From Chiloscyllium plagiosum (lineage: Eukaryota), in assembly GCF_004010195.1 (NCBI RefSeq), contig NC_057719.1:11666737-11705176 (forward strand): a stretch of 38,440 bases of DNA, given 5' to 3'. Within the stretch, counting starts at the first letter, position 1; every line of letters starts with the position of its first letter. Positions 3,127 through 33,733 of the stretch are shown here, in pieces. Made by a program: the position numbers and the translations under genes. The notes beneath the pieces are model-generated. The model did no database searches. It had not been told where the DNA came from and was given only the letters and a program-made list of their open reading frames with translations.

Positions 3127-4221
3127 TAATGATGCAATTGAACCCAGGTCCCTTGTACTGTGAGGCAGCGGTGCTCACCACTGAGGCAATTAATGATATG
3201 CAGTAACTGTTGGGTTAGCCAGCATTGTCCACATCCCATGAATTAATATTTTAAGAATTAATGATGCCAATGAATGTCAAGGGGAGAACGTGGTTTAATT
3301 CTTCTTGTTGGAGATAGTCACTGTCTGGTTCTCAACACTTTCACGAATGCAAATTAAGAGTAAGCCATAAATTTCAGTCCAGTCAGTAACACCCATATAC
3401 CAAGAATGAATTTCCTGATAACGAAAAGTTGTGCAGTGGACAGCCTAGATTAAATCTTGCTTGATTAACTCTGGAGTGAGTATTAAATCAAAAGCAAGAT
3501 TAAGTGGTCAACAGCTAATCACGGATTACACCGTGAAGGAAGAATGTGTACCACCCAATTTTCACCAATCGTCATGCACTTATCAGGGTGTATGTGCAAT
3601 ATTTTTCCGGATACAAAATATTTTGCAAGAACTCTGTTATGTTCAGAGATAACAAAGAATTCCAGTTACCTCTGAACTCTGCTAATGGATTCCAAACTTC
3701 TAAAAGGAAATCCTTAAAAGTATTTGAAAAAATTACTGGAGACAATCTTGTAGACTTGCAAATATTCGAAATCCAGGAGATTGTAGTTTATGAATTGATC
3801 TGTCACATGACATTATTACATTGTTCAGTGAGGGAACAGTCTCAAGAAAAAAAATTGAAATAGAGATTTTATGCTATTTCAAAGCACACTGTTGCAAAGG
3901 AGGAAGAGACAATTAAGTATTTTACTGATAATGCAATTTTTGAATTTATAGTTGATTGGAGACGTTTAACCTGTTAATCTTACTCCAATTGGGGGCTACA
4001 CATCAACTTGATTTTCTGTGGATAAAATCAGGACTGTTATAGCAATTCGGACAAAGAGAAAATGAGAAAGTAAGGCGCTCAGAAACCAACAGGAAACGAC
4101 AGAGACTGAGAAGAGTGACTGTTTCAATATCCGGAACAAAATGTTTCCTATGTGCAAGAACGTGGCAAAACGGAGGATATCCCCCCTATTAAATCAAACA
4201 AGGAAATGCGAGGTAAAAACA

Positions 4222-4337
4222 ATAACTGCAGATGCTGGAAACCAGATTTTGGATTAGTGGTGCTGGAAGAGCACAGCAGTTCAGGCAGCATCCGAGGAGC
4301 AGGAAAATCGACTTTTCGGGCAAAAGCCCTTCATCAG
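4222..4337 (-). mobile_element. PLE terminal-repeat arm, family A, with hammerhead-like core
   Basis: Same sequence as the arms at 8363-8546, 20762-20978, 32421-32645 and 33640-33733. Confidence 0.75.
4310..4337 (-). ncRNA. Minimal type I hammerhead ribozyme-like motif (family A)
   Basis: Minus strand reads CTGATGA-A-GGGC-TTTT-GCCC-GAAA-AG-TC. Both conserved boxes, stem II and the UH triplet are present. The stem III palindrome (ACGT in sister copies) is mutated. Confidence 0.6.
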
Positions 4338-4344
4338 TGCTGGA

Positions 4345-4940
4345 CATTTGAAACAAACAAAACAGAAATTGCTGGGAAAACTTTAGCAGGTGTGTGAATA
4401 TCTGTGCAGAGAAAACAAGAGCAACGATTTTAACAGATGCAGCCAGACCAGCTGAGTTGCTCCAGCAATTTTTGTTTTTGTTTCATATTCCCCTTAAACG
4501 AGACATTTTCTGTTACCTTACCATAATATACGACAAAAGTTTGGAGATCTGAAGACAATGGAAGGAAAAATACTGCCCAGGAAGCTTTAAGTATTGAAGG
4601 AGCGTCACTGGTCCAGAAAGGTTAACTCCGTTTCTCTCTCCACAGAATGCTGCCAGATCTGATGAGTGTCTCTGACAATTTCTGTTTGAGTTTGACATTC
4701 GCCTCCGTCAAGGCTTGGATCAACTTTTTGAACGGGATACTTTCTGCGATCGTACCATAATAAACGGTAGAAGCTGGGGGATCTGAAGTAACACATGGAG
4801 AAAAGAAAGTGATATAAAACAAAGAACAGCGGATGCTAAAGATCTGAGATAAATTGCTGCAGAAACCCAGCAGGTTGGACAGCATCTATGCAGAGAGAGC
4901 AGAGTTAACTGTTCGACTCCGGTGACCCTCCTTCAGAACA
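4345..4940. mobile_element. Cluster of PLE terminal-repeat arms, family B (hairpin 4345-4490; arms ~4595-4700 + and ~4825-4940 -)
   Basis: Shared motifs GTTAACTC(T/C)GTTTCTCTCTCCACAGATGCTGCCAGA and AAACAGAAATTGCTGG in both orientations. The same motif terminates the GIY-YIG/RT element at 15148-16380. Confidence 0.7.
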
Positions 4941-5492: not shown

Positions 5493-5627
5493 ATGGAGAG
5501 CAAACTGGCGCCCAATGGAGACATCTACAGCACCGTCAACGGCTTCATGGAGAAGGCCCACTCTGAGGGCAAGGTGGCGGCGAGGAAGAACGGCTTCGTG
5601 AAACCCGCTTTCGCCCAGAACGGGAAG
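5493..5627 (+). CDS. SPTLC2: Serine palmitoyltransferase 2, coding exon 1 (45 codons, MESKLAPNGDIYSTVNGF...QNGK)
   Basis: First ATG downstream of the promoter motif cluster, in strong Kozak context (GCA-ATG-G). Ends at the consensus donor AAG|GTAAGG in phase 0, which joins in frame to exon 2. Its size (135 nt) is close to the first coding exon of human SPTLC2 as I recall it. The N-terminal sequence itself is divergent. Confidence 0.85.
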
Positions 5628-5879: not shown

Positions 5880-7030
5880 AGATGGAGCAGATTGGTGGCT
5901 TCATCATTTGATTATTGCTGATGTGTTTTCACCCCTCTTCTGCCTTCTACCTGTAATTTTGATCCCTTTACTTATTAAGAACCTCTGTCTTAAATATAGT
6001 CCGTGACTTGGCCCCCGCAGCCCTCTGTGGCAATGATTTTCATGGATTAGCCACCCTCTTGCTGAAGAAAGTCTTCCTTATCAGTTGTAAAGCATCATTT
6101 GGCAGCATCTGTCAAGAGAAATCAGAGTTAACGTTTTGAGCCTGGTGACTCTTCCTCCGAACAGGACCTGAAACATTAACTCCATCTTCTCACAGATGCT
6201 GCCAGACTTCCTATGCTTTTCCAGCAGCTTCTGTTTCTGTTTTAGCATCTGCAGTCCTTTTGGTTTTTTTTTCTAGACCATTGTCCCTTCACTCTGAAGC
6301 TGTGCCGTCAGGTCCTAGTGTCTCCTGTTAGTGGAAACCTATTCTCCGTGCCCACTCTATCCAGGCCTCTAGTATTCTGTAAGTTTCAATGAGATGCCCC
6401 TCATCCTTCTAAATTCCATTGAGTACAGACCCAGAGTCCACAACAACGAGCAGCCGAGCTACAAATCTTCTCCCAAACTTTGAACACTCCTCATATGACA
6501 AGCTCTTCATTCCTGGAATCATTCTTTTAAACCTCTACTGAACCCCTCTGAGGCTAACACATCTCTCTTTAGATATGGGGCCCAAAACTGCTCTTAATAT
6601 TCCAAATGCAACCTGACTGAAGCCTTTTATAACCTCAGCAGTGCATCCTGCTCTTGTATTCTAGCCTTCTCAAAATAAATCCTAACGTTGCACTAGCTTG
6701 CCAACTGCACTTGCATGCTAACCTTGAGAATCCTAAACGAAGATTCTGAAGTCCCTTTTGATCTTTAGATGTACAAAGCTTTTTCCCATTTACAAAATAG
6801 TCTACACCTTTATTCTTCCTACCAAAGCACGTAACGTTACTTCTGCCAATTCTTAGCCTGTCCAAGTCCTTCTGCAGCTTCCCTGCTTCCTCAACACTAC
6901 CTGTCCTTCCACCTTTCTTTGCATCCTGTGCAAATGCCCCTAGTTCCTTCATCCAGACTGTTAATATGACATAGTAGTTTTGGTCCCAACACTGACTCCT
7001 GTGGAACTTCACTAGTCTGGAGCTGCCAAC
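5880..7030 (-). mobile_element. Decayed CR1 LINE 3' portion (RT C-terminal half to 3' UTR) with nested PLE fragments
   Basis: Minus-strand remnants of QGSVLGP, FADDTK-like AQDAKKGG, LQKDLDRL and LGFI.R.LEYKS. Confidence 0.85.
6100..6272. mobile_element. Palindromic PLE-derived insertion, family B, inside the CR1
   Basis: TGGCAGCATCTGT..GAGTTAACGTTT is followed by its inverse AAACATTAACTC..ACAGATGCTGCCA. Ends in AGCATCTGCAGTCC plus a T run. Confidence 0.7.
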
Positions 7031-8362: not shown

Positions 8363-8546
8363 CGAAGAGTGTGGTGTTGGCAAAGTAAAGTTGGTCAGGC
8401 AGCATCCAAGGAGCAGGAGGGTCGACGTTTCAGGCATAAGCCCCTCATCATTCCTGCTGCTCTGATTTTATCTGACTTGCTGTGCTTTTCCAGCGCCACA
8501 CTCTTTGACTCTGATCTCCAGTATCTGCAGGCCTCACTTTCTCTTA
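8363..8546 (+). mobile_element. Palindromic PLE-derived mini-element, family A, with probable 12-bp TSD
   Basis: Inverted arms. Flanked by TCTCACTGGAGT (8351-8362) and TCTTACTGGAGT (8547-8558). Confidence 0.75.
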
Positions 8547-12439: not shown

Positions 12440-13110
12440 AACCTGCCAGACATATTCCCCTCCCCTCCCTTGTCAACATTCCACAGGGACCATTCCGTCT
12501 GGCATACCTTGGTCCGCTCCTCCACTCCCAACATCTCCAGAACCCCACAACTTCCCATGCAATTGCAGAAGGTGCAACACCTGTTTGTTTCCCCCCTCCA
12601 TCCTGACTATCCAAGTCTCCAGACACACTTTCCAGGTGCAAAGATTTACCTGCACTTGATTTCATTTAGTTTGTTGTCGCTCACAATGTTGCCTCATCTA
12701 CGTTGAGACAAAACTACAGACTGACTGCTTTGTGGAAATCCTACATTATGTCTGTAAACATTACCTTGAGCTTCCAATTGCCTGCCACCATGTCCCCATG
12801 CCAACATTTGTCTCAGGCCTGCTGCAGTGCCCCAACAAGGTTTGACGCAAGCTTGAAGAACAGTACATCTTTTGGTTTGGGATCTTGTAGTCTTCTGGAT
12901 TCAACTTCTTAATTAGTAATTTTAGAATAACCATTGGCAATGTCAATGAAGGTGCTGGCGAACCTCAGTTGGTCTGGCAGCATCTTTGGAAAGAAGTTAA
13001 TATTGCAAGTCCAGCCTCCCTCCTTCAGAACTGTTTAGATGGGCTGTTTCATCTTTACAGGTGCTGCCAAGCCAGTTGCATTTCTCCAGTAACATCTGTT
13101 TTTGTTTGAA
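12440..13110 (+). mobile_element. Decayed Penelope-like element (Cys-rich linker and GIY-YIG remnant) followed by inverted family-B arms
   Basis: Frameshifted FPCNCRRCNTC, FQV..FTC and C..C.LIYV-ETK.RL motifs. Hairpin arms at ~12950-13110. Confidence 0.7.
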
Positions 13111-14484: not shown

Positions 14485-14690
14485 AAAACCAAATGCTGGA
14501 GAAATGTAGCAGGTTTGCTGGAGATAAATGTTTTGAATCCGAAATGATTTTTCTTCACGCTTGTTTGGGTGTCTTTGTTCCAAAGAGGATTTGGATTGGA
14601 TTCTGTCCAATCTGCTCTCTCTCCACAGATATTGTGGGACCTGCTAAGTTTTACCTGTACTTTGTTTTATTTTAGCATCCACAGTACCAA
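14485..14690. mobile_element. Old palindromic PLE-derived element, family B-like
   Basis: AAATGCTGGAGAAATGTAGCAGGT is inverted against CTCTCCACAGAT..GACCTGCTAAGTTTT. Confidence 0.55.
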
Positions 14691-14994
14691 CTTTTTATTT
14701 ATTGTTAGTGGTGGTTAATATTAACATAACATTTGCTTATGTTTGTGAGCTCCATTGCAGGTTCAAAGCAAACTGAGGCAGTTCTGCTAAATTAAACACT
14801 GATGCAGATCATGTAGCAGGGAACTTGGTGTGTCAATTACCACGAGTCAAACTGTGGGATCTCAAAAGATTAGTGTACTTGTATTTTCTAAACTCATATT
14901 AGCCTGAAAGTATGGATAGAGTATTGTTCATTATTCTTGGGGAGGGGTGGCAGGATGAAATGCTGTATTGTCAACCATGTTTCAGTGGTAATAC

Positions 14995-15147: not shown

Positions 15148-16380
15148 CAAAAACAGTGCTTGAAATACGCAGCAGGTCTGGCAGCATCTATGTAAAGTGA
15201 AAAAGTTAATCTTTTGAGTTCAGTCACACTTTGTCAGAACTGAAAGCAGCTGAAAAACTGCAATTATGATGAAGATGGGGTAGAAAAGTGAATAGATGGA
15301 GACGAATCAGGGAGAGATGGAAGGGAAGCAAACTTAGAGATTGCTGATAGCAAGCTGGTGAATAAGTGGATGCTGAATAGGTGAAGGCAGGAATTTCAAA
15401 TGATTGAAAGTGGGCTGCTTGTCCTGGGAGCAACCCATACAGAATCCTCCATACAGGGATGAGCATGGAGGGAGATGTTCGCACTGAAATTGGTAAACTC
15501 TTGAGGACTGTAAGTTATTAGGCTGAAGATCTGTTGTTCTCCAGTTTGCATTGAGCTTTAGAGCACTGCAGCAGGTCTGACACACCTGCATAGAGCATGG
15601 TGTGGAATGTAGCTGGAAACTCGGTCACTTTTAACAGAGCATATGTTTGGCAAAGTGATTGCCCAGTCTCTGTTTTGTCTCCCCAGTGTAGAGACCATGT
15701 TGTGAGTAGTGAAAACAAGTAGATTGAATCTCTGCTTCATCTGAAAGGTGTGCCTGGAGCCTTTGATAGTGAGGAAGGAGGAGGTAAGCAGTCAAGTGTT
15801 GCATCTCCTGCAGGCGCATGGGAAAGTGCCACGAGGGTATGAGGAGCTATTGAGAATGGAGGAGCAATGGACCAGCGTGTCCCTGAGGAAACTGTCCCTG
15901 GGGAATGTTGGCAAGTGAGGAAATGTCTGGTGGTGCTATCCCACAGAAGGTGGTGGAAATGACAGCTCGTGATGTTTCAACTCTGGAGACTGCTGAGTGG
16001 AAAGTGAAAACAAGTGGTCCCTATCCTTGATGTGAAAGAAAACAGGTAAGGTGCAGGAAATGGGCTAGATGTGGCTGAGGATCCTGTTAACCACGTAACA
16101 GGGAACATTAGGTTGAGGAAAAAGGTGGATGTCTAAGACCCTCATGGAGGGTGGTGACAGGAATGAGAACCTGAGAAAGATGCAGTGGAGTCCCTACAGG
16201 AGGCAGGGTGTGAGGATGCATGGTCGAAGTAACTGTAGGAATCAGTGGGCTTGTAATGAATATCAGTAGCCAGTCTACTCTCAGAAGTGGAAACAAAACT
16301 CCAAGAAAGGGAAGAGTCAGATGGGCCAAGTGAAGCTGAGGGAAATATGGAAATTTGATGCAAATTGATTTTCTAATTCT
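15148..16380 (-). mobile_element. Decayed Penelope-like retroelement (RT thumb, GIY-YIG, terminal repeat family B)
   Basis: Minus-strand ORF pieces LPFL.., RLATDIHYKPTDSYSYFDHASSHPASCRDS and GLYTGETKQRLGNHFAKH. Family-B arm at 15148-15240. Confidence 0.85.
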
Positions 16381-17609
16381 TGACTAGTTTGAAGCACAAA
16401 GTTTTGAGGGAGGTACCTTTGGTAGTACTGGAATATGGAATGTTCTGTGTACCTCTGAGACTGGCTCCAAGCCCCATAGCAATATCTTTGACATGAAGAA
16501 AGTGGGAGGATTAAAAGATGCAGTGACATTGTTGGAGGAGCAGAGGAATGTGTACTGAGTTGTCCTAAGTGCTGGCAGCTATTAGTTCTATTTTACAGCA
16601 TTCCAAAAAAAACCTGGTCAGGACAAAGAGTAAGTCATTGTGGTGATGAGTTTTGCACTCTTCCAGTAGTGTGAAAACATTGTACAAATGTATGTCCTTT
16701 CCTAAGTGCAAGAGTTCTGCCTGGTCATTTTTAGGCTGATGCTGCTTTTGCAACAAGAGAACTGTACGGTGTGTGCAGAGTTGGTTTGCACCTATAAAAG
16801 GGAGTGTTCTTAGATAATGTCATTAAACCTTATCTGCAAATTGGAACTGCTATTTCAAGCCTCACTTTAGTATGATTGTTAAACCCTTGAGAGAATTTGA
16901 ATTTGTCACAGCTTCAAGCTATTCCAAAGCATTTTGCTTGCACCAAATTACTTTTGAAATAGCCAAATATGTAACCAAATAGAGAATTTAATTTATGTTC
17001 ACATCCCAGATTCAGCAAATTCTCGTTTTGACCATGCAAGGATCTTGTGACTTTTAGAGCCATCTACGAAAATAAATAAAATTTTGGTTTGTTGACAGAA
17101 ATTGGTTCAATATGTCAAAGACTGTAACTGTGCAGCAGTTCATGCAGCACTGCTGTGTGATGGATTGTGCTTAAATGCTGTTGCTTGTGAAACTACAGCG
17201 TTTGCTGCCATCTGAATCAAGTAACCTTTTCTCTGTCATAGTAAATAAATTGTGCTGAAATTAATTTTTTATTGTTTGCAATATTTTGCTTTCATCTACT
17301 TTTTCACATGCAAAGATCCAGTTTATTGAATAGTGGCCAAGTTATATAAATTGAACTGGCTTTATTCAATTTCAGTCAGTACTTGGGCCTGTGTATGTGG
17401 TAATGGGTTAGAAATGAAAATTGTTCCATATGTATTTGCTTTTGTATAGTACTGTTTCTAACCTGCATCTGCAATTTATAGACCACAATGAATGTTGTCC
17501 CTGTCATTCCAGGCACTTGATGCATGTTGTTTCTCCCAGTAGAAAGAAATTCTAAATCTTGGTGTCCTTAATGAGCACCTTTCCTGTGGACACACTTAGT
17601 GAGTTTTGA

Positions 17610-18160
17610 CGTCTCGGGAATGACTGCCAGATTACTCAGCACACTAAAACAGTGGCTAATGAACGTGCAAGACCCTATACAGACAATGAGCAAAACTAAT
17701 GTCATTTATGAAATACTGTGCAAGGACTGCAACAAACACTACATTGGACAAACAGGTAGAAAACTAGCCACCAGAATACATGAACACCAACTAGCCACAA
17801 AAAGACATGATCCTCTCTCACTAGTATCCTCACATATGGATGAGGAAGGCCACCACTTCGACTGGGACAACACATCCATCCTAGGACAAGCCAAACAAAG
17901 ACATGTGCGAGAATTCCTAGGGGCATGGCACTCCAACCGGAACAAACCCATTGAGTTAGACCCCATCTACCACCCCCTGAGAAAAGGAACAGGAAGTGAT
18001 TTTGGCACAGGAAATGACATCACCAACCCAAAGAAACACAAATAGATAACAGGAATTTTAGTATTGGTTTGCATGAGGCCCACTGAAGATGTTACCTAAT
18101 AGGGTAACGAAATGCCTGAAAATGTACGTTTCAGCTCAGCGAGCAAACCTACATCCAACA
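17610..18160 (+). mobile_element. Penelope-like element 3' part, family D: GIY-YIG endonuclease (open to 18045) and 3' region with hammerhead motif
   Basis: KTNVIYEILCKDCNKHYIGQTGRKLATRIHEH...H....HHFDWDNTSIL is a PLE GIY-YIG with the CxxC insert. It is 5'-truncated and has no RT. Confidence 0.92.
18080..18119 (+). ncRNA. Minimal hammerhead ribozyme-like motif (family D), partly decayed
   Basis: CA-CTGAAGA-T-GTTACC-TAATAG-GGTAAC-GAAA-TG-CC-TG. Perfect 6-bp stem II, located just after the GIY-YIG stop codon. The UH position is mutated. Confidence 0.6.
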
Positions 18161-19740: not shown

Positions 19741-20761
19741 TAGTTTGCAAAGAGCTCAGGTAGTATTTGGAGTGTTAAATTTATGTTCAGAGTAAATGTT
19801 GAAATATATTAAGGTATGATCAGATAAATTTCTGACCCCACTTTATTAGCTGTGGGTCATTAGCAGCACTCTTGCCTCGAACTCAAAGGCTGCAAGTTTC
19901 AGCCCTATCCAGAGACTTGGCTCCATTATTAGATGTACTCTTGTTTGTATGAGGCATTAGACCAAGACCTCACCTGCACGTTGTCTTTCAATAATGAAGT
20001 TTTTCGTGTTTATCTGTCATTTCTTTTGCATTGCAATAGTGGATATTTTGGATGTAACTCTAAGATTGTTTGGATGTCCAATGGCTTTTTATAAATGCAA
20101 ACTATATGAAAATTGAAGATAATCAGTACCTGCAGTCACTTTTTCCATTAACTTGAATGTGCATACTTTTAAGGGAATTAGATAGACCTGATATGTTGTA
20201 AACAGACCCTTTCAGATGCTCAGTACCAACTCTCTCAGGAGAATGTAATTAAAATGTTACACTAGCAATTACAATTAGAAATGTTGATGGAAATTTTTAA
20301 TGTGCAAAAACAAGGACAGGACAGCTTATGTGACTTTATACCCGGCATGTGATTATGTCTCCATGTCTTTGTTCAGATATCCCTGTGCTATTGTTTCTGA
20401 AGACTCTTCTGAACTACTTTTCCTTGACTGCTTTCATTTTATGTTTTAACATGAACTATTCTTTGTGCACAATTTGATTGTGTCTCATGCTTTCTGTCAC
20501 ATTTTTTGTGACTTCTGATTACTTAATTTGCTCTCATTAGCACCTTATCTGTGTAACAATATTATCTGTGAATGACAGACCCACAAAGGTACTTGTTAAT
20601 CATTGTTATGCCACCTTGAGACAGAATGATAGGTAAAATGCAAACAGTTGTCAAAACTTGTATTACCTGGAATTTGGTGGGGTGGGGGTGGTTTGGGAAG
20701 TCCATTTAAACTCTACATCTGGATTTACTTTCTTCCATCATTGGCTACCTCTATAAACCTG

Positions 20762-20978
20762 AAAATGTGTTGCTGGAAAAACGCAGCAGGTCAGGCAGCA
20801 TCCAAGGAACAGGAGAATCGACGTTTCGGGCATAAGCCCTTCTTCACAATACCATAGGGATATCTGAAGAAGGGTTTATGCCCAAAACGTCGATTTTCCT
20901 GTTCCTTGGATGCTGCCTGACCTGCGCTTTTCCAGCACACTTTCAGCTCTGATTTCCAGCATCTGCAGCCCTCACTTT
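20762..20978 (+). mobile_element. Palindromic PLE-derived mini-element, family A, with perfect 16-bp TSD
   Basis: TACCTCTATAAACCTG at 20746-20761 and 20979-20994. Inverted arms of ~80 bp around an 18-nt spacer (20847-20864), each arm carrying a hammerhead-like core. Confidence 0.9.
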
Positions 20979-21230
20979 TACCTCTATAAACCTGGCAAGA
21001 ATGTAAAATTCCCGCTTGCAGTAAGTGGCAAGTAATGCAGATGCATTTAAGCAGAGGCCAGATGTGTACATGAGAGAATAGAAGCAAATGTTGTGATGGT
21101 GGATGACAGCTGCCTTGAGCAAAAATACACTTACAGATCTGATGGGCTGAATGACCTGTTTGTTCTATGTAACTGTTCAATTTTTAAAATGAGTAAAACT
21201 CAATATGGTACTGCAGTATTTTTAACAACT

Positions 21231-21784: not shown

Positions 21785-21872
21785 AGGGAAGGGCTTGTGC
21801 CTGAAACATCAACTCACCACCTTGGATGCTGCCTGATCTGCTTAGCTTTTCCAGTGCCATACTTTTCGACAG
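21785..21872 (+). mobile_element. PLE family A single-arm fragment
   Basis: GAAGGGCTTGTGCCTGAAACATC..CCTTGGATGCTGCCTGA..TTTTCCAG. Confidence 0.7.
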
Positions 21873-21889: not shown

Positions 21890-23355
21890 GAAAAACAGTG
21901 GAACAGCAATGGCAGGAGTTTCTGGGAGTGATTCAGGAGACTGTGGAGATTCATCCCAAGGGGGAAAAAGGAGCATAGTACAGGGATGATGAGGCAACCG
22001 TGGATGACTAGGGAAATCAGAGATAGTATAATAGCAGAAGAAAGCATTATAATGTGGTGAAGGAAAGTGGGAAACCAGAGGATTGGGAAGCTTACAAAGA
22101 GAGGGCAACAAAACAAAAGATGGAAGATTAAATATGAACTGGCCAGTAATATAAAGGGGGAAAAAAAGTTTCTTTAGATGTATAAAGGGCAAAAGAAGCA
22201 AAAGTGGATATTGGGCTGCTGAAAAATGATGCTAGAGATAGTAGTGGGGAACAAGAAAATGGCTGAGGAACTGAATTACTTTGTCAGTTTTCATGGGGCA
22301 AGACACTAGTAATATCACACAAATTCGAGGGGGGTGCAGAACTGAGTTTGGTGGCCATCACCCAAGGAGAAGGTGCTAGAAACACTGAATGGTCTGATGG
22401 TCTGTAAGTCACCTGGCGCAGATGGACTACACCCCAGAGTTCGAAGGGAGATAGCTAAAAAGATAATGGAGGCATAAGTGGTGATCTTTCAGGAATTGCT
22501 AGAATCAGGGATGGTCCCAGAGGACTGAAAAATCACTTACATGACACCCCTGTTTAAAAAGGGAGTAAGGCAAAAGAATGATTAGCCTAACCTTGATTGT
22601 GGATAAGATCCTGGAATCCATTGTGAAGGATACGATTTCTGAACACTGAAGTGTGTGGTAAAATAGGGCAAAGTCAGCATGGTTTCATTGAGGGGCGGTC
22701 ATGCTTGACAAATTTGTTGGAATTCTTTTAAGGAAGTAACGAGCCGGTTGGACCAAGGCGAGCCAATGGATGTTATCTACCTGGACTCCAAGAAGGCCTT
22801 TGACAAGGTGCCGCACAGGAGGTTACTGAGTAAGATAAGGGTCCATGGTGTCAGAGGCAAGGTGCTAGCATGGATTGAAGCTTGGCTGCCTGGCAGAAAG
22901 CAGAGAGTGGGGATAAAAGGGCCTTTCTCAAGATGGCACCCGGTGACAAGTGGTATTCCGCAAGGGTCAGTGTTGGGACCGCAACTTTTCACTTTATACA
23001 TTATTGATCTAGATGAAGGAACCATGGGCATTCTGGCGAAGTTTGCAGATAACACAAAGATAGGTAGAGGAACAGGTAGCATTGAGGAGTTGGGGAGGCT
23101 GCAGAGGATTTGGACAGGTTAGGAGAGTGTGAGAAAGTGAGGTCAAGAATAGAGGCATAGACTATTGTCTAAATAGGGAGAAAATTCAGAAGTCTGAAGT
23201 GTAAAGAGACTTGGGAGTTCTAGTCCAGGATCCTGGACAAGGTAAACCTACAGGTTAATTCAGTAGTTAGGAAGGCAACTGCAATGTTGGCATTTATTTT
23301 TGAGGGATAGAAAGAAGGGATGTATTTCAGAGGCTCTATAAGGCTCTGGTCATAC
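21890..23355 (+). mobile_element. CR1 LINE ORF2 reverse-transcriptase remnant
   Basis: DVIYLD.KKAFDKVPHRRLL, SGIPQGSVLGPQLF and KFADNTKIG motifs. Several frameshifts and stops. Confidence 0.93.
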
Positions 23356-24472: not shown

Positions 24473-25305
24473 ATAGAGTCATAGAGATGTATGGCACGGA
24501 AGCAAACCCTTCAGTCCAATTCCTCCATGCTGACCAGATATCTTAAGTTAGTCCAATTTGCCAGCACTTGGCCCACATCCCGTTAAACCCTTCTTATTCA
24601 TATACCCATCCAGATGCCTTTTAAATGTTGTAATTGTACCAGCCTCCATCACTTCCTCTGACAGCTCATTCAATACACACACCTCTGTAGAAACAATTGC
24701 TCTTTTCAAAATCATTTCCCTCTCACCTTAAATCTATGCCTTCTAGTTCTGGACTTCCCTACCCCAGGGAAATTACCTTGTCTATTTACCTTATCCATGC
24801 CCCTTGTGATTTTATAAACCTCTATAAGCTCACCCCTTAGCCTCTGATGCTCCAGGGGAAATAGCCCTCGTCTTTCTCTAGCTGAATCTTCCAACCCTAG
24901 CAACATTTTTGTAAATATTTTCTGAACCCTTTCAAGTATCACAACATCCTTCCTATAGCAAGGAAACCAGAATTGCAGACAATATTGCAAAAGTGGCTTA
25001 ACCAATGTCCTGTACAGCAGCAACATGACCTGAACTGAAATACTCAGTGCTCTGACCAATAAAGGAAAGCATACTAAATGCCGCCTTCACTATCCTATTT
25101 ACCTGAGAATTCAAGGAACTATGAACCCGCACTCCAAAGGTCTCTGTTCAGCCAGACTCCCCAGGACCTTACCATTAACTGTATAAATCCTGCCCTGCTT
25201 TGCCTTTCCAGAATGCTGCACTTCACATTTATCTAAATTAAACTCCATCTGCCACACCTCAGCCCATTAGCCCATCTGATCAAGATCCCATTGTACTCTG
25301 TATCT
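24473..25305 (-). mobile_element. CR1 LINE 3' portion
   Basis: Minus ORF LLLYRTLVKPLLQYCLQFWFPCYRKDVVILERVQK...RLRGELIEVYKI...SRTRRHRFKVRG. Confidence 0.92.
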
Positions 25306-31877: not shown

Positions 31878-32072
31878 ATTCTTCATGTTGCACAAAATGG
31901 TGGACTGTACAAGAAGCCATTTAATCAGTCTTTTGAGGAAACACCTATGCTTGTTGCTGTGTTGACGTATATGGGTTATGGAATCCTTACACTTTTTGGA
32001 TATCTCAGGGATTTTCTTCGGGAGTGGAAGATTGAAAAATGTCATCATGCTACTGAACGTGAAGAGCAAAAG
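31878..32072 (+). CDS. SPTLC2: Serine palmitoyltransferase 2, coding exon 2 (65 codons)
   Basis: [65 protein letters not shown] closely matches vertebrate SPTLC2 ([11 protein letters not shown] favours SPTLC2 over SPTLC3). Branch-like CTGAC, polypyrimidine tract and CAG acceptor; AAG|GTGAGG donor; 195 nt, phase 0-0. Confidence 0.96.
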
Positions 32073-32420: not shown

Positions 32421-32645
32421 CAAAAGTGAGGACTGCAGATGCTGGAGATTAGAGTCAAGATTACAAGTGGTGTTGGAAAAGCACAACAGGTCAGGCAGCA
32501 TCCAAGGAGCAGGAAAATCAATATTTTGGGCAGGAGCCCATCATCAGGAATGAGGATGAAGGGCTCCTGCCCAAAACGTTGATTTTCCTGCTCCTCGGAT
32601 GCTGCCTGATCTGCGCTTTTTGCAGCGCCACTCTAATCTTGACTA
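32421..32645 (-). mobile_element. Palindromic PLE-derived mini-element, family A, with imperfect 14-15 bp TSD
   Basis: TGGTCCTGGCCTAGG (32406-32420) and TGGTCCTGACTAGG (32646-32659). Inverted arms of ~90 bp meet at decayed hammerhead cores. Confidence 0.85.
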
Positions 32646-33639: not shown

Positions 33640-33733
33640 ATCAAGTTTAGAGTGGTGCTGGAAAAGCACAGCAGGTCTGGCAGCATCAGAGGAGCAGGAA
33701 AATCGGTCTTTCGGGCAAAAGCCCTTCAGGAAT
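33640..33733 (-). mobile_element. PLE family A single arm
   Basis: GTGGTGCTGGAAAAGCACAGCAGGTCTGGCAGCATC..TTTCGGGCAAAAGCCCTTCAGGAAT. Confidence 0.75.

Follow-up and report, generated by a model that had tools for sequence, protein, structure and literature searches.

The insertion unit of EN+ Penelope-like elements (PLEs) is described as a terminal repeat (pLTR) with an adjacent inverted and 5'-truncated pLTR, a tail of 30-40 bp and a target-site duplication (TSD) (PMC3846280; PMC8557442, Figure 2; PMC2377424). The formation of tandem and inverted PLE structures is, according to Craig et al. (2021, PMC8557442), not understood. The PLE protein of the anole is reported to nick and extend both target strands, to start reverse transcription at two sites bounding the tail, and to prefer uncleaved RNA (PMC11167929). 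The minimal hammerhead motifs of metazoan PLEs, as characterized in PMC4209133, have an extra nucleotide that separates position 9 from 10.1, a G10.1-C11.1 pair, a palindromic 15.2-16.2 segment and no loop III. Most are dispersed single motifs, and in Schistosoma dual motifs lie 100-700 bp apart on opposite strands.

Three other described systems are close to the locus considered here. Non-LTR retrozymes are presented as head-to-tail tandems with a complete hammerhead in consecutive units (bioRxiv 10.64898/2026.07.22.740005). Twin-primed L1 inversions have discrete TSDs of 12-18 bp and microhomology at the 5' junction (PMC11702581), and the donors of L1 templated insertions are given as typically within 15 bp (bioRxiv 2024.08.27.596794). 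The repair pathway SD-MMEJ is hypothesised to reach ~30 nt (PMC5728401).

The window, a 38,440-nucleotide stretch of Chiloscyllium plagiosum contig NC_057719.1, contains a short palindromic insert whose best explanation is a Penelope-like retrotransposon stub that was dead on arrival and arose in a single integration. Like the EN+ PLE units as published, it has a head-to-head inverted end repeat with a shorter inverted copy, a tail on one side (31 bp in Pen2a_Av, 32-35 here), a TSD and an empty allele. Unlike them, it has no ORF between the arms, its TSD measures 16 bp rather than the 8-10 bp given for Adineta, and its junction appears to be a patch derived from the flank, where theirs is described as a short palindrome. 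The first-pass annotation of this DNA had put the insert forward as the best candidate in this DNA for an under-described system; its layout is already published for PLEs (PMC3846280; PMC8557442), as are the minimal hammerhead and opposed pairs of such motifs. What is new is a spacer that matches flanking DNA ~350 bp away, at a tract bracketed by microhomologies to both arm ends. Coordinates of the features are collected in Table 1.

Table 1. Features of the focal insert, its host intron and two related palindromes (window positions).
Feature	Position	Strand	Basis or remark
Host intron 1 of SPTLC2	5628-31877	+	coding exon pieces 5493-5627 and 31878-32072
Candidate donor tract for spacer, left flank	20369-20403	-	bracketed by TTCAG (20372-20376) and CTGAAGA (20397-20403); ends 342 bp before TSD
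Left TSD copy, 16 bp	20746-20761	+	closing CTG is shared with the inverted arm (3-nt microhomology); organisms B and C have one copy at the empty site
Inverted tail-less copy of PLE-type terminal repeat (pLTR)	20762-20846	-	arm alignment, family profile
Minimal-hammerhead remnant, C3 replaced by G at spacer junction	20820-20847	-	descriptor search
Spacer (putative patch)	20847-20863	+	15/17 match to reverse complement of flank 20377-20393
Direct (sense) pLTR piece, begins at hammerhead core position C3	20864-20946	+	arm alignment, family profile
Minimal-hammerhead remnant, G12 changed to A; one additional nt follows A9, stem II of 4 bp, loop III absent	20864-20891	+	descriptor search
Unpaired tail, 32 nt (35 nt with the CAG opposite the CTG microhomology)	20947-20978	+	same tail on copies 32422-32546, 8452-8540 and 4215-4336
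Right TSD copy, 16 bp	20979-20994	+	exact repeat of left copy; empty-site alignment
Second palindrome, opposite orientation	32422-32644		TSD candidate 32406-32420/32646-32659, one indel, ~14-15 bp; both arms without G12; centre is family sequence
Third palindrome	8365-8540		tail arm without hammerhead part; TSD candidate 8349-8362/8545-8558, two mismatches, ~12-14 bp

Target site, host gene and age of the insertion

The 217-bp insert (20762-20978) is enclosed by an exact pair of 16-mers that cannot be extended on either side and has no other occurrence on either strand of the window. It lies on the plus strand inside the first intron of SPTLC2. The peptide read from 5493-5627 is 100% identical to a Chiloscyllium plagiosum protein named serine palmitoyltransferase 2, and a splice-site scan found an open exon at 31878-32072, which we assign, by its likeness to SPTLC2, to exon 2.

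Positions 20400-21210 were compared with four of 24 runs, namely with contigs of samples X5 (organism A), X9 (organism B) and X17 (organism C) and with RNA run X22. In organism B (X9 record 16) the segments 20400-20746 and 20980-21210 are joined at adjacent record positions, and in organism C (X17 record 1) the same is true of 20400-20748 and 20982-21210. Each record skips 233 bp, that is, the 217-bp insert plus one 16-bp repeat copy. The same skip in both related species identifies a true TSD and a young insertion. The right piece of the organism B record has nine differences, all of them outside the 16-mer; for organism C, the positions of 15 of the 17 differences are given. The flanks differ from the window at 19 of 578 positions in B and at 29 of 578 in C. 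Ten of the listed differences are common to B and C (two of them are also found in X5), which places ~1.7% divergence on the branch leading to the window. Since organism C is the most distant, a gain is the simplest reading.

Another organism A sample (X5 record 15) contains the right flank together with 29 letters of the tail, the rule of the tool being 31 letters; the insert is thus likely to be present in a second individual. The insertion is young and specific to the A lineage. An insertion with a perfect 16-bp TSD and CTG microhomology at the left junction had been read from the letters in the first-pass annotation, which also proposed seeking the empty site in relatives; the repeat, the microhomology and the empty sites of B and C all bear this out. 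An assembly artefact was considered and is ruled out, as the empty sites match exactly and the second sample carries the right junction. At 20573 and 20575, X5 has the letters of B and C rather than those of the window, which reflects either polymorphism or an assembly error. No reads of X22 aligned to 20400-21210, based on only ~6% of that run.

Arms, hammerhead remnants and copies of the family

A PLE origin, a true TSD and a lineage-specific insertion are supported. Membership in the EN+ PLEs is suggested by four structural features read from the DNA: a TSD of variable length with an empty site, a terminal repeat with a minimal type I hammerhead (in both arms, with one core mismatch each), a second copy that is inverted, 5'-truncated and faces the direct repeat head-to-head, and a tail of the 30-40-nt class on one end only, with tail-less ends that coincide across copies. 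Peptides read from the end repeat gave no protein match, a weak negative, and so linked no autonomous RT/GIY-YIG ORF to it.

The arms 20786-20846 and 20865-20925 are complementary at 58 of 61 positions, with 18 nt between them. Over the full span (88 versus 82 nt, shared CTG included) they differ by three substitutions, compared to 2.8 expected from drift after insertion, and by six gap positions, all in the distal 28 nt, which is more than drift suggests. Both arms end at core positions C3/U4, away from the cleavage site. The predicted RNA folds at -145.5 kcal/mol (z = -18.4), and none of 200 shuffles was as good. The palindrome with an 18-nt gap, the long hairpin and the unpaired end of ~35 nt had been recognized before and hold; the last measures 32 nt, or 35 if CTG is assigned to the target. 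The arms share one letter, at 20809 and 20902. By contig depth it is the minority letter at 20809 in all three samples; at 20902 this holds for X5 and X9 and not for X17.

Hammerheads were sought with a minimal-hammerhead descriptor built from the description in PMC4209133, with no more than one core mismatch allowed. It has seven matches in the window with one core mismatch, five of them in the focal family, versus two in six shuffled windows; no mismatch-free minimal hammerhead was found in the window by this descriptor. The motifs of the focal insert share with the minimal hammerheads of PMC4209133 the extra nucleotide between 9 and 10.1, the G10.1-C11.1 pair, the palindromic 15.2-16.2 segment and the absence of loop III. 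They are unlike the examples given there in having a stem II of only 4 bp, mutations in both cores, and opposed cores ~17 nt apart within a long hairpin. A search of two supplementary files of PMC4209133 for shark names and the core motif gave no match.

A strict hammerhead pattern matches neither arm of the focal insert, and a Rfam search at E ≤ 1 returned two weak matches, neither of them a hammerhead; one, mir-722 (26 bits against a gathering score of 81), reflects the hairpin only. One substitution of the conserved core in each arm, together with the lack of a strict match, identifies the motifs as hammerhead remnants. An intact foldable core (C3-A9, G12-A15.1, U16.1-H17) is absent: C3 is G in the left motif, G12 is A in the right one, and stem II is sequestered, with a predicted pair probability of ~1e-13 to 1e-10 in the whole-element RNA of either strand. 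The change C3G is reported to abolish cleavage by PAc, the anole PLE ribozyme (PMC11167929), and G12 is described as the general base of the hammerhead (PMC6155905). The 50-nt fold of the hammerhead of a solo copy is no better than shuffles (z = -0.44). It had been proposed that a hammerhead core is present whichever strand is transcribed; with both cores broken and stem II locked in the hairpin, an active two-way ribozyme is unsupported and was rejected. With no ORF in addition, the element is inert.

Like non-LTR retrozymes as described, the insert is non-coding, has a type I hammerhead motif and is related to PLE pLTRs. Unlike them, it is head-to-head with broken cores, and assignment to the retrozymes was rejected, as neither the descriptor nor the family profile results gave a head-to-tail tandem with complete hammerheads.

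A different PLE family has left a 3' remnant at 17575-18160, in which a minimal hammerhead of the same layout (18083-18116; 7-bp stem II, U16.1 changed) follows a GIY-YIG domain (PF01541). The end of this remnant (17575-18116) does not align to the focal family beyond a 12-nt word. A weak 10-bp TSD candidate flanks it at 17575/18172. At 16075-16110, outside the focal family, lies an isolated motif that resembles a minimal hammerhead; its stem II has 7 bp and its core one mismatch.

At E ≤ 0.5, a family profile made from five window copies matches the window 20 times, and two of these matches are weak (E 0.09 and 0.21). Fourteen form seven head-to-head pairs with seven different centres, none is tail-to-tail, and six are unpaired. 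None of the six other pairs has the centre of the focal insert. In the three close palindromes the tail-less arms end at the same point, and microhomology at the TSD end amounts to 3 nt in the focal insert, 4 nt in the 8365-8540 copy and none in the 32422-32644 copy; the TSD candidates of the latter two are imperfect and come from the window sequence alone. The solo tail-less arms at 33643-33728 and 21788-21862 have the same end point, as is expected from a second RT start site.

Older and more diverged stubs or fold-backs of related subfamilies are present at 4215-4482, 4608-4695, 4815-4934, 6098-6265, 12943-13096, 14492-14694 and 15154-15225. Four older stubs lie within ~700 bp upstream of SPTLC2 exon 1, and 4215-4336 directly abuts another fold-back. 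Fragments of endonuclease (PF03372) and RT (PF00078) domains at 488-937, 22709-23122 and 24712-25086, together with recurrent SINE-like repeats, are taken as ordinary decayed LINE/SINE content of the intron.

In three runs, 43,083, 38,135 and 37,318 contigs aligned to the family at ≥90%; summed contig depth does not translate into copy number. The family has no match in exact-pattern scans of viral contigs, metagenome contigs and prokaryote genomes, as expected for a shark repeat. A search of titles and abstracts, with most subscription papers beyond its reach, found no description of this shark family.

Source of the spacer

The spacer had been regarded as unique. It matches the reverse strand of the left flank: the 17 nt outside both arms have their best match in the window, on both strands, at 20377-20393 (15/17), and the likeness extends to 23 of 26 positions (20846-20871 against the reverse strand of 20394-20369; BLAST E 5e-4 within the window). 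The last base of the 18-nt gap, 20864, is C3 of the right core. The donor tract is bracketed on the left by TTCAG, complementary to the beginning of the right arm, and on the right by CTGAAGA, complementary to the inner end of the left arm; these microhomologies span 5-6 nt.

Among mononucleotide shuffles, 2 of 10,000 reached 15/17 within ±500 bp and 11 of 2,000 over the window; among dinucleotide shuffles, none of 10,000 and none of 2,000 did so, respectively. These statistics are somewhat flattering because the match was noticed first and tested afterwards. Among real 17-mers, 36 of 5,000 had an equal match within 500 bp; 26 of these were attributed to the pair itself, the TSD or palindromes, so that 10 remain. 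Elsewhere in the window the donor region shows no notable match. The spacer differs from the donor at two of 17 letters (0.6 expected, P ~0.12) and by a 4-nt gap before the left bracket. The contig comparison began at 20400, so that the donor tract lies almost wholly outside it.

The match to the local flank implies that the centre was assembled at this locus rather than inherited from a palindromic master. The template strand may have been the one left single-stranded by resection on the tail-less side. Taken together, it is very probable that the insert is a PLE-type stub and that its centre was built here. A literature search, which most subscription papers lay outside, found no description of a flank-templated PLE junction.

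Routes of formation and their meaning

Priming from both ends of the target is a moderately likely route for this locus. A PLE RT/GIY-YIG complex would nick both target strands 16 nt apart. The 3' end of the bottom strand would then prime cDNA synthesis on a short pLTR RNA, starting from its tail, and produce the right arm with the tail, and the 3' end of the top strand (ending in CTG) would anneal to a CAG 32-35 nt further inside, on the same or a second RNA, producing the tail-less arm. Both cDNAs would stop at core C3/U4; as this stop lies upstream of the cleavage site, the RNA would have been uncleaved. The end of the top cDNA (TCTTCA) could find CTGAAGA on the left flank's top strand, or alternatively on nascent SPTLC2 pre-mRNA of the same sequence, pair with it and be extended by ~20 nt up to CTGAA; this CTGAA would anneal to TTCAG at the end of the bottom cDNA. 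The six distal gap positions between the arms, which exceed the drift expectation, could reflect two RNA templates.

Several features resemble L1 twin priming and templated insertions as described (PMC11702581; bioRxiv 2024.08.27.596794): a 5'-inverted segment, microhomology at the TSD end, a discrete long TSD, an end-joined internal junction and local DNA copied into the insert. Unlike L1, the focal insert lacks poly(A), and its arms overlap fully, where the pieces of L1 come from adjacent regions of the RNA. Snap-back SD-MMEJ and polymerase-theta insertions (PMC5728401; PMC11292364) likewise consist of flank copied in inverted form from the same side, one end formed by a primer repeat and the other by a microhomology repeat. 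Unlike in these, the loop here is much longer and the patch sits between two cDNA ends; a template jump by the RT is equally possible.

Against two-ended priming stand the evidence from a single locus, with two of 17 letters different between spacer and donor and the 4-nt gap, and the distance of the donor, ~350 bp compared with the ~15 bp reported for L1 and the ~30 nt for SD-MMEJ. In addition, the full overlap of the arms needs two RNAs or re-use of one, the six gap positions exceed drift, the peptide searches linked no autonomous ORF, and one of the three palindromes has no junction microhomology. Head-to-head junction palindromes of PLEs were, moreover, read as self-priming by Arkhipova et al. 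(PMC3846280).

That published reading favors a route in which only the bottom nick primes, which is rather unlikely here. The cDNA would reach the 5' end of the RNA, jump to the left flank via TTCAG, copy ~20 nt and snap back on its own TCTTCAG through the copied CTGAAGA, so that self-copying gives the inverted arm and CTG joins it to the target. The same two brackets permit this, one RNA suffices, and the arms share minority letters. However, the left flank's bottom strand would have to serve this cDNA as template although it would be paired or resected away, and self-copying predicts arms free of the six gap differences. The fixed stop of tail-less arms 32-35 nt inside the tail is also unexplained by it, whereas it corresponds to the second RT start site reported for the anole protein (PMC11167929), and tail-less arms exist as solo copies. 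Simple fold-back priming at the ribozyme, as suggested in the first-pass annotation, fares worse: it leaves the flank-derived centre unexplained, and the arms end at C3/U4 and not at the cleavage site.

An improbable origin is retrotransposition of a whole non-autonomous palindromic master RNA, with the hairpin tip broken later and patched from nearby DNA. A flank-templated patch dates the place of the centre and not its time, the family is very abundant with stereotyped outer ends, and non-autonomous PLE derivatives are described (PMC8557442; bioRxiv 10.64898/2026.07.22.740005). On the other hand, all seven head-to-head pairs have different centres, that of the 32.4-kb copy being family sequence, six of the 20 matches are unpaired, in two of three cases the inverted arm has letters in common with the target at its outer end, and an A-branch of ~1.7% leaves little time for a later repair. 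Behind 20846, 319, 294 and 222 contigs of A, B and C, respectively, leave the focal sequence, and their consensus begins with GGAATG and not with the spacer; the same continuation forms the centre of the 32.4-kb copy, that is, family sequence. No piece crosses the spacer, X5 included, among those listed (24 of 120,387 pieces, 15 of 182 joints and 18 of 750 loose ends), a small share of the pieces that leaves room for such a master. Thirteen of the 15 joints listed start at 20839-20846 and end at eight places, which would point to inversion points that vary; with sides of 18-25 nt at likeness 90, they are not counted as evidence. Of the two options offered earlier, a recurrent product formed at insertion is favored by the seven centres, the divergence of contigs at the spacer and the local copy, which speak against an amplifying hairpin mini-element.

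A MITE or other DNA-transposon derivative, with the arms as terminal inverted repeats and the hammerhead likeness and spacer match incidental, would account for a short, ORF-less, hairpin-forming, TSD-flanked sequence of high copy number, and is very improbable given the asymmetric ends with a 32-35-nt tail on one side, TSDs of no fixed length (16 bp here versus ~12-15 bp at the other copies, ~14-15 and ~12-14 bp), the occurrence of single arms and the excess of hammerhead descriptor matches over shuffled windows.

The element itself is ordinary, and its value lies in the evidence on how mirror-image PLE insertions form. If the flank of the target itself supplied the centre, then the inversion junction existed at this locus as an exposed end, and this suits a two-ended mechanism. 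For annotators, such hairpins are to be read as insertion by-products and not as MITEs or working bidirectional ribozymes. Tentatively, and close to evenly balanced, head-to-head PLE palindromes in general may result from double target-primed reverse transcription at two RT start sites, with the cDNA ends joined like a DNA break and sometimes patched from resected flank or host pre-mRNA hundreds of bases away. If double target priming is true, that intermediate would have left a molecular fossil at this locus, and shark genomes, in which young stubs are very numerous and close relatives provide empty sites, would allow the origin of PLE inverted repeats and tails to be read statistically from the side and strand of the filler.
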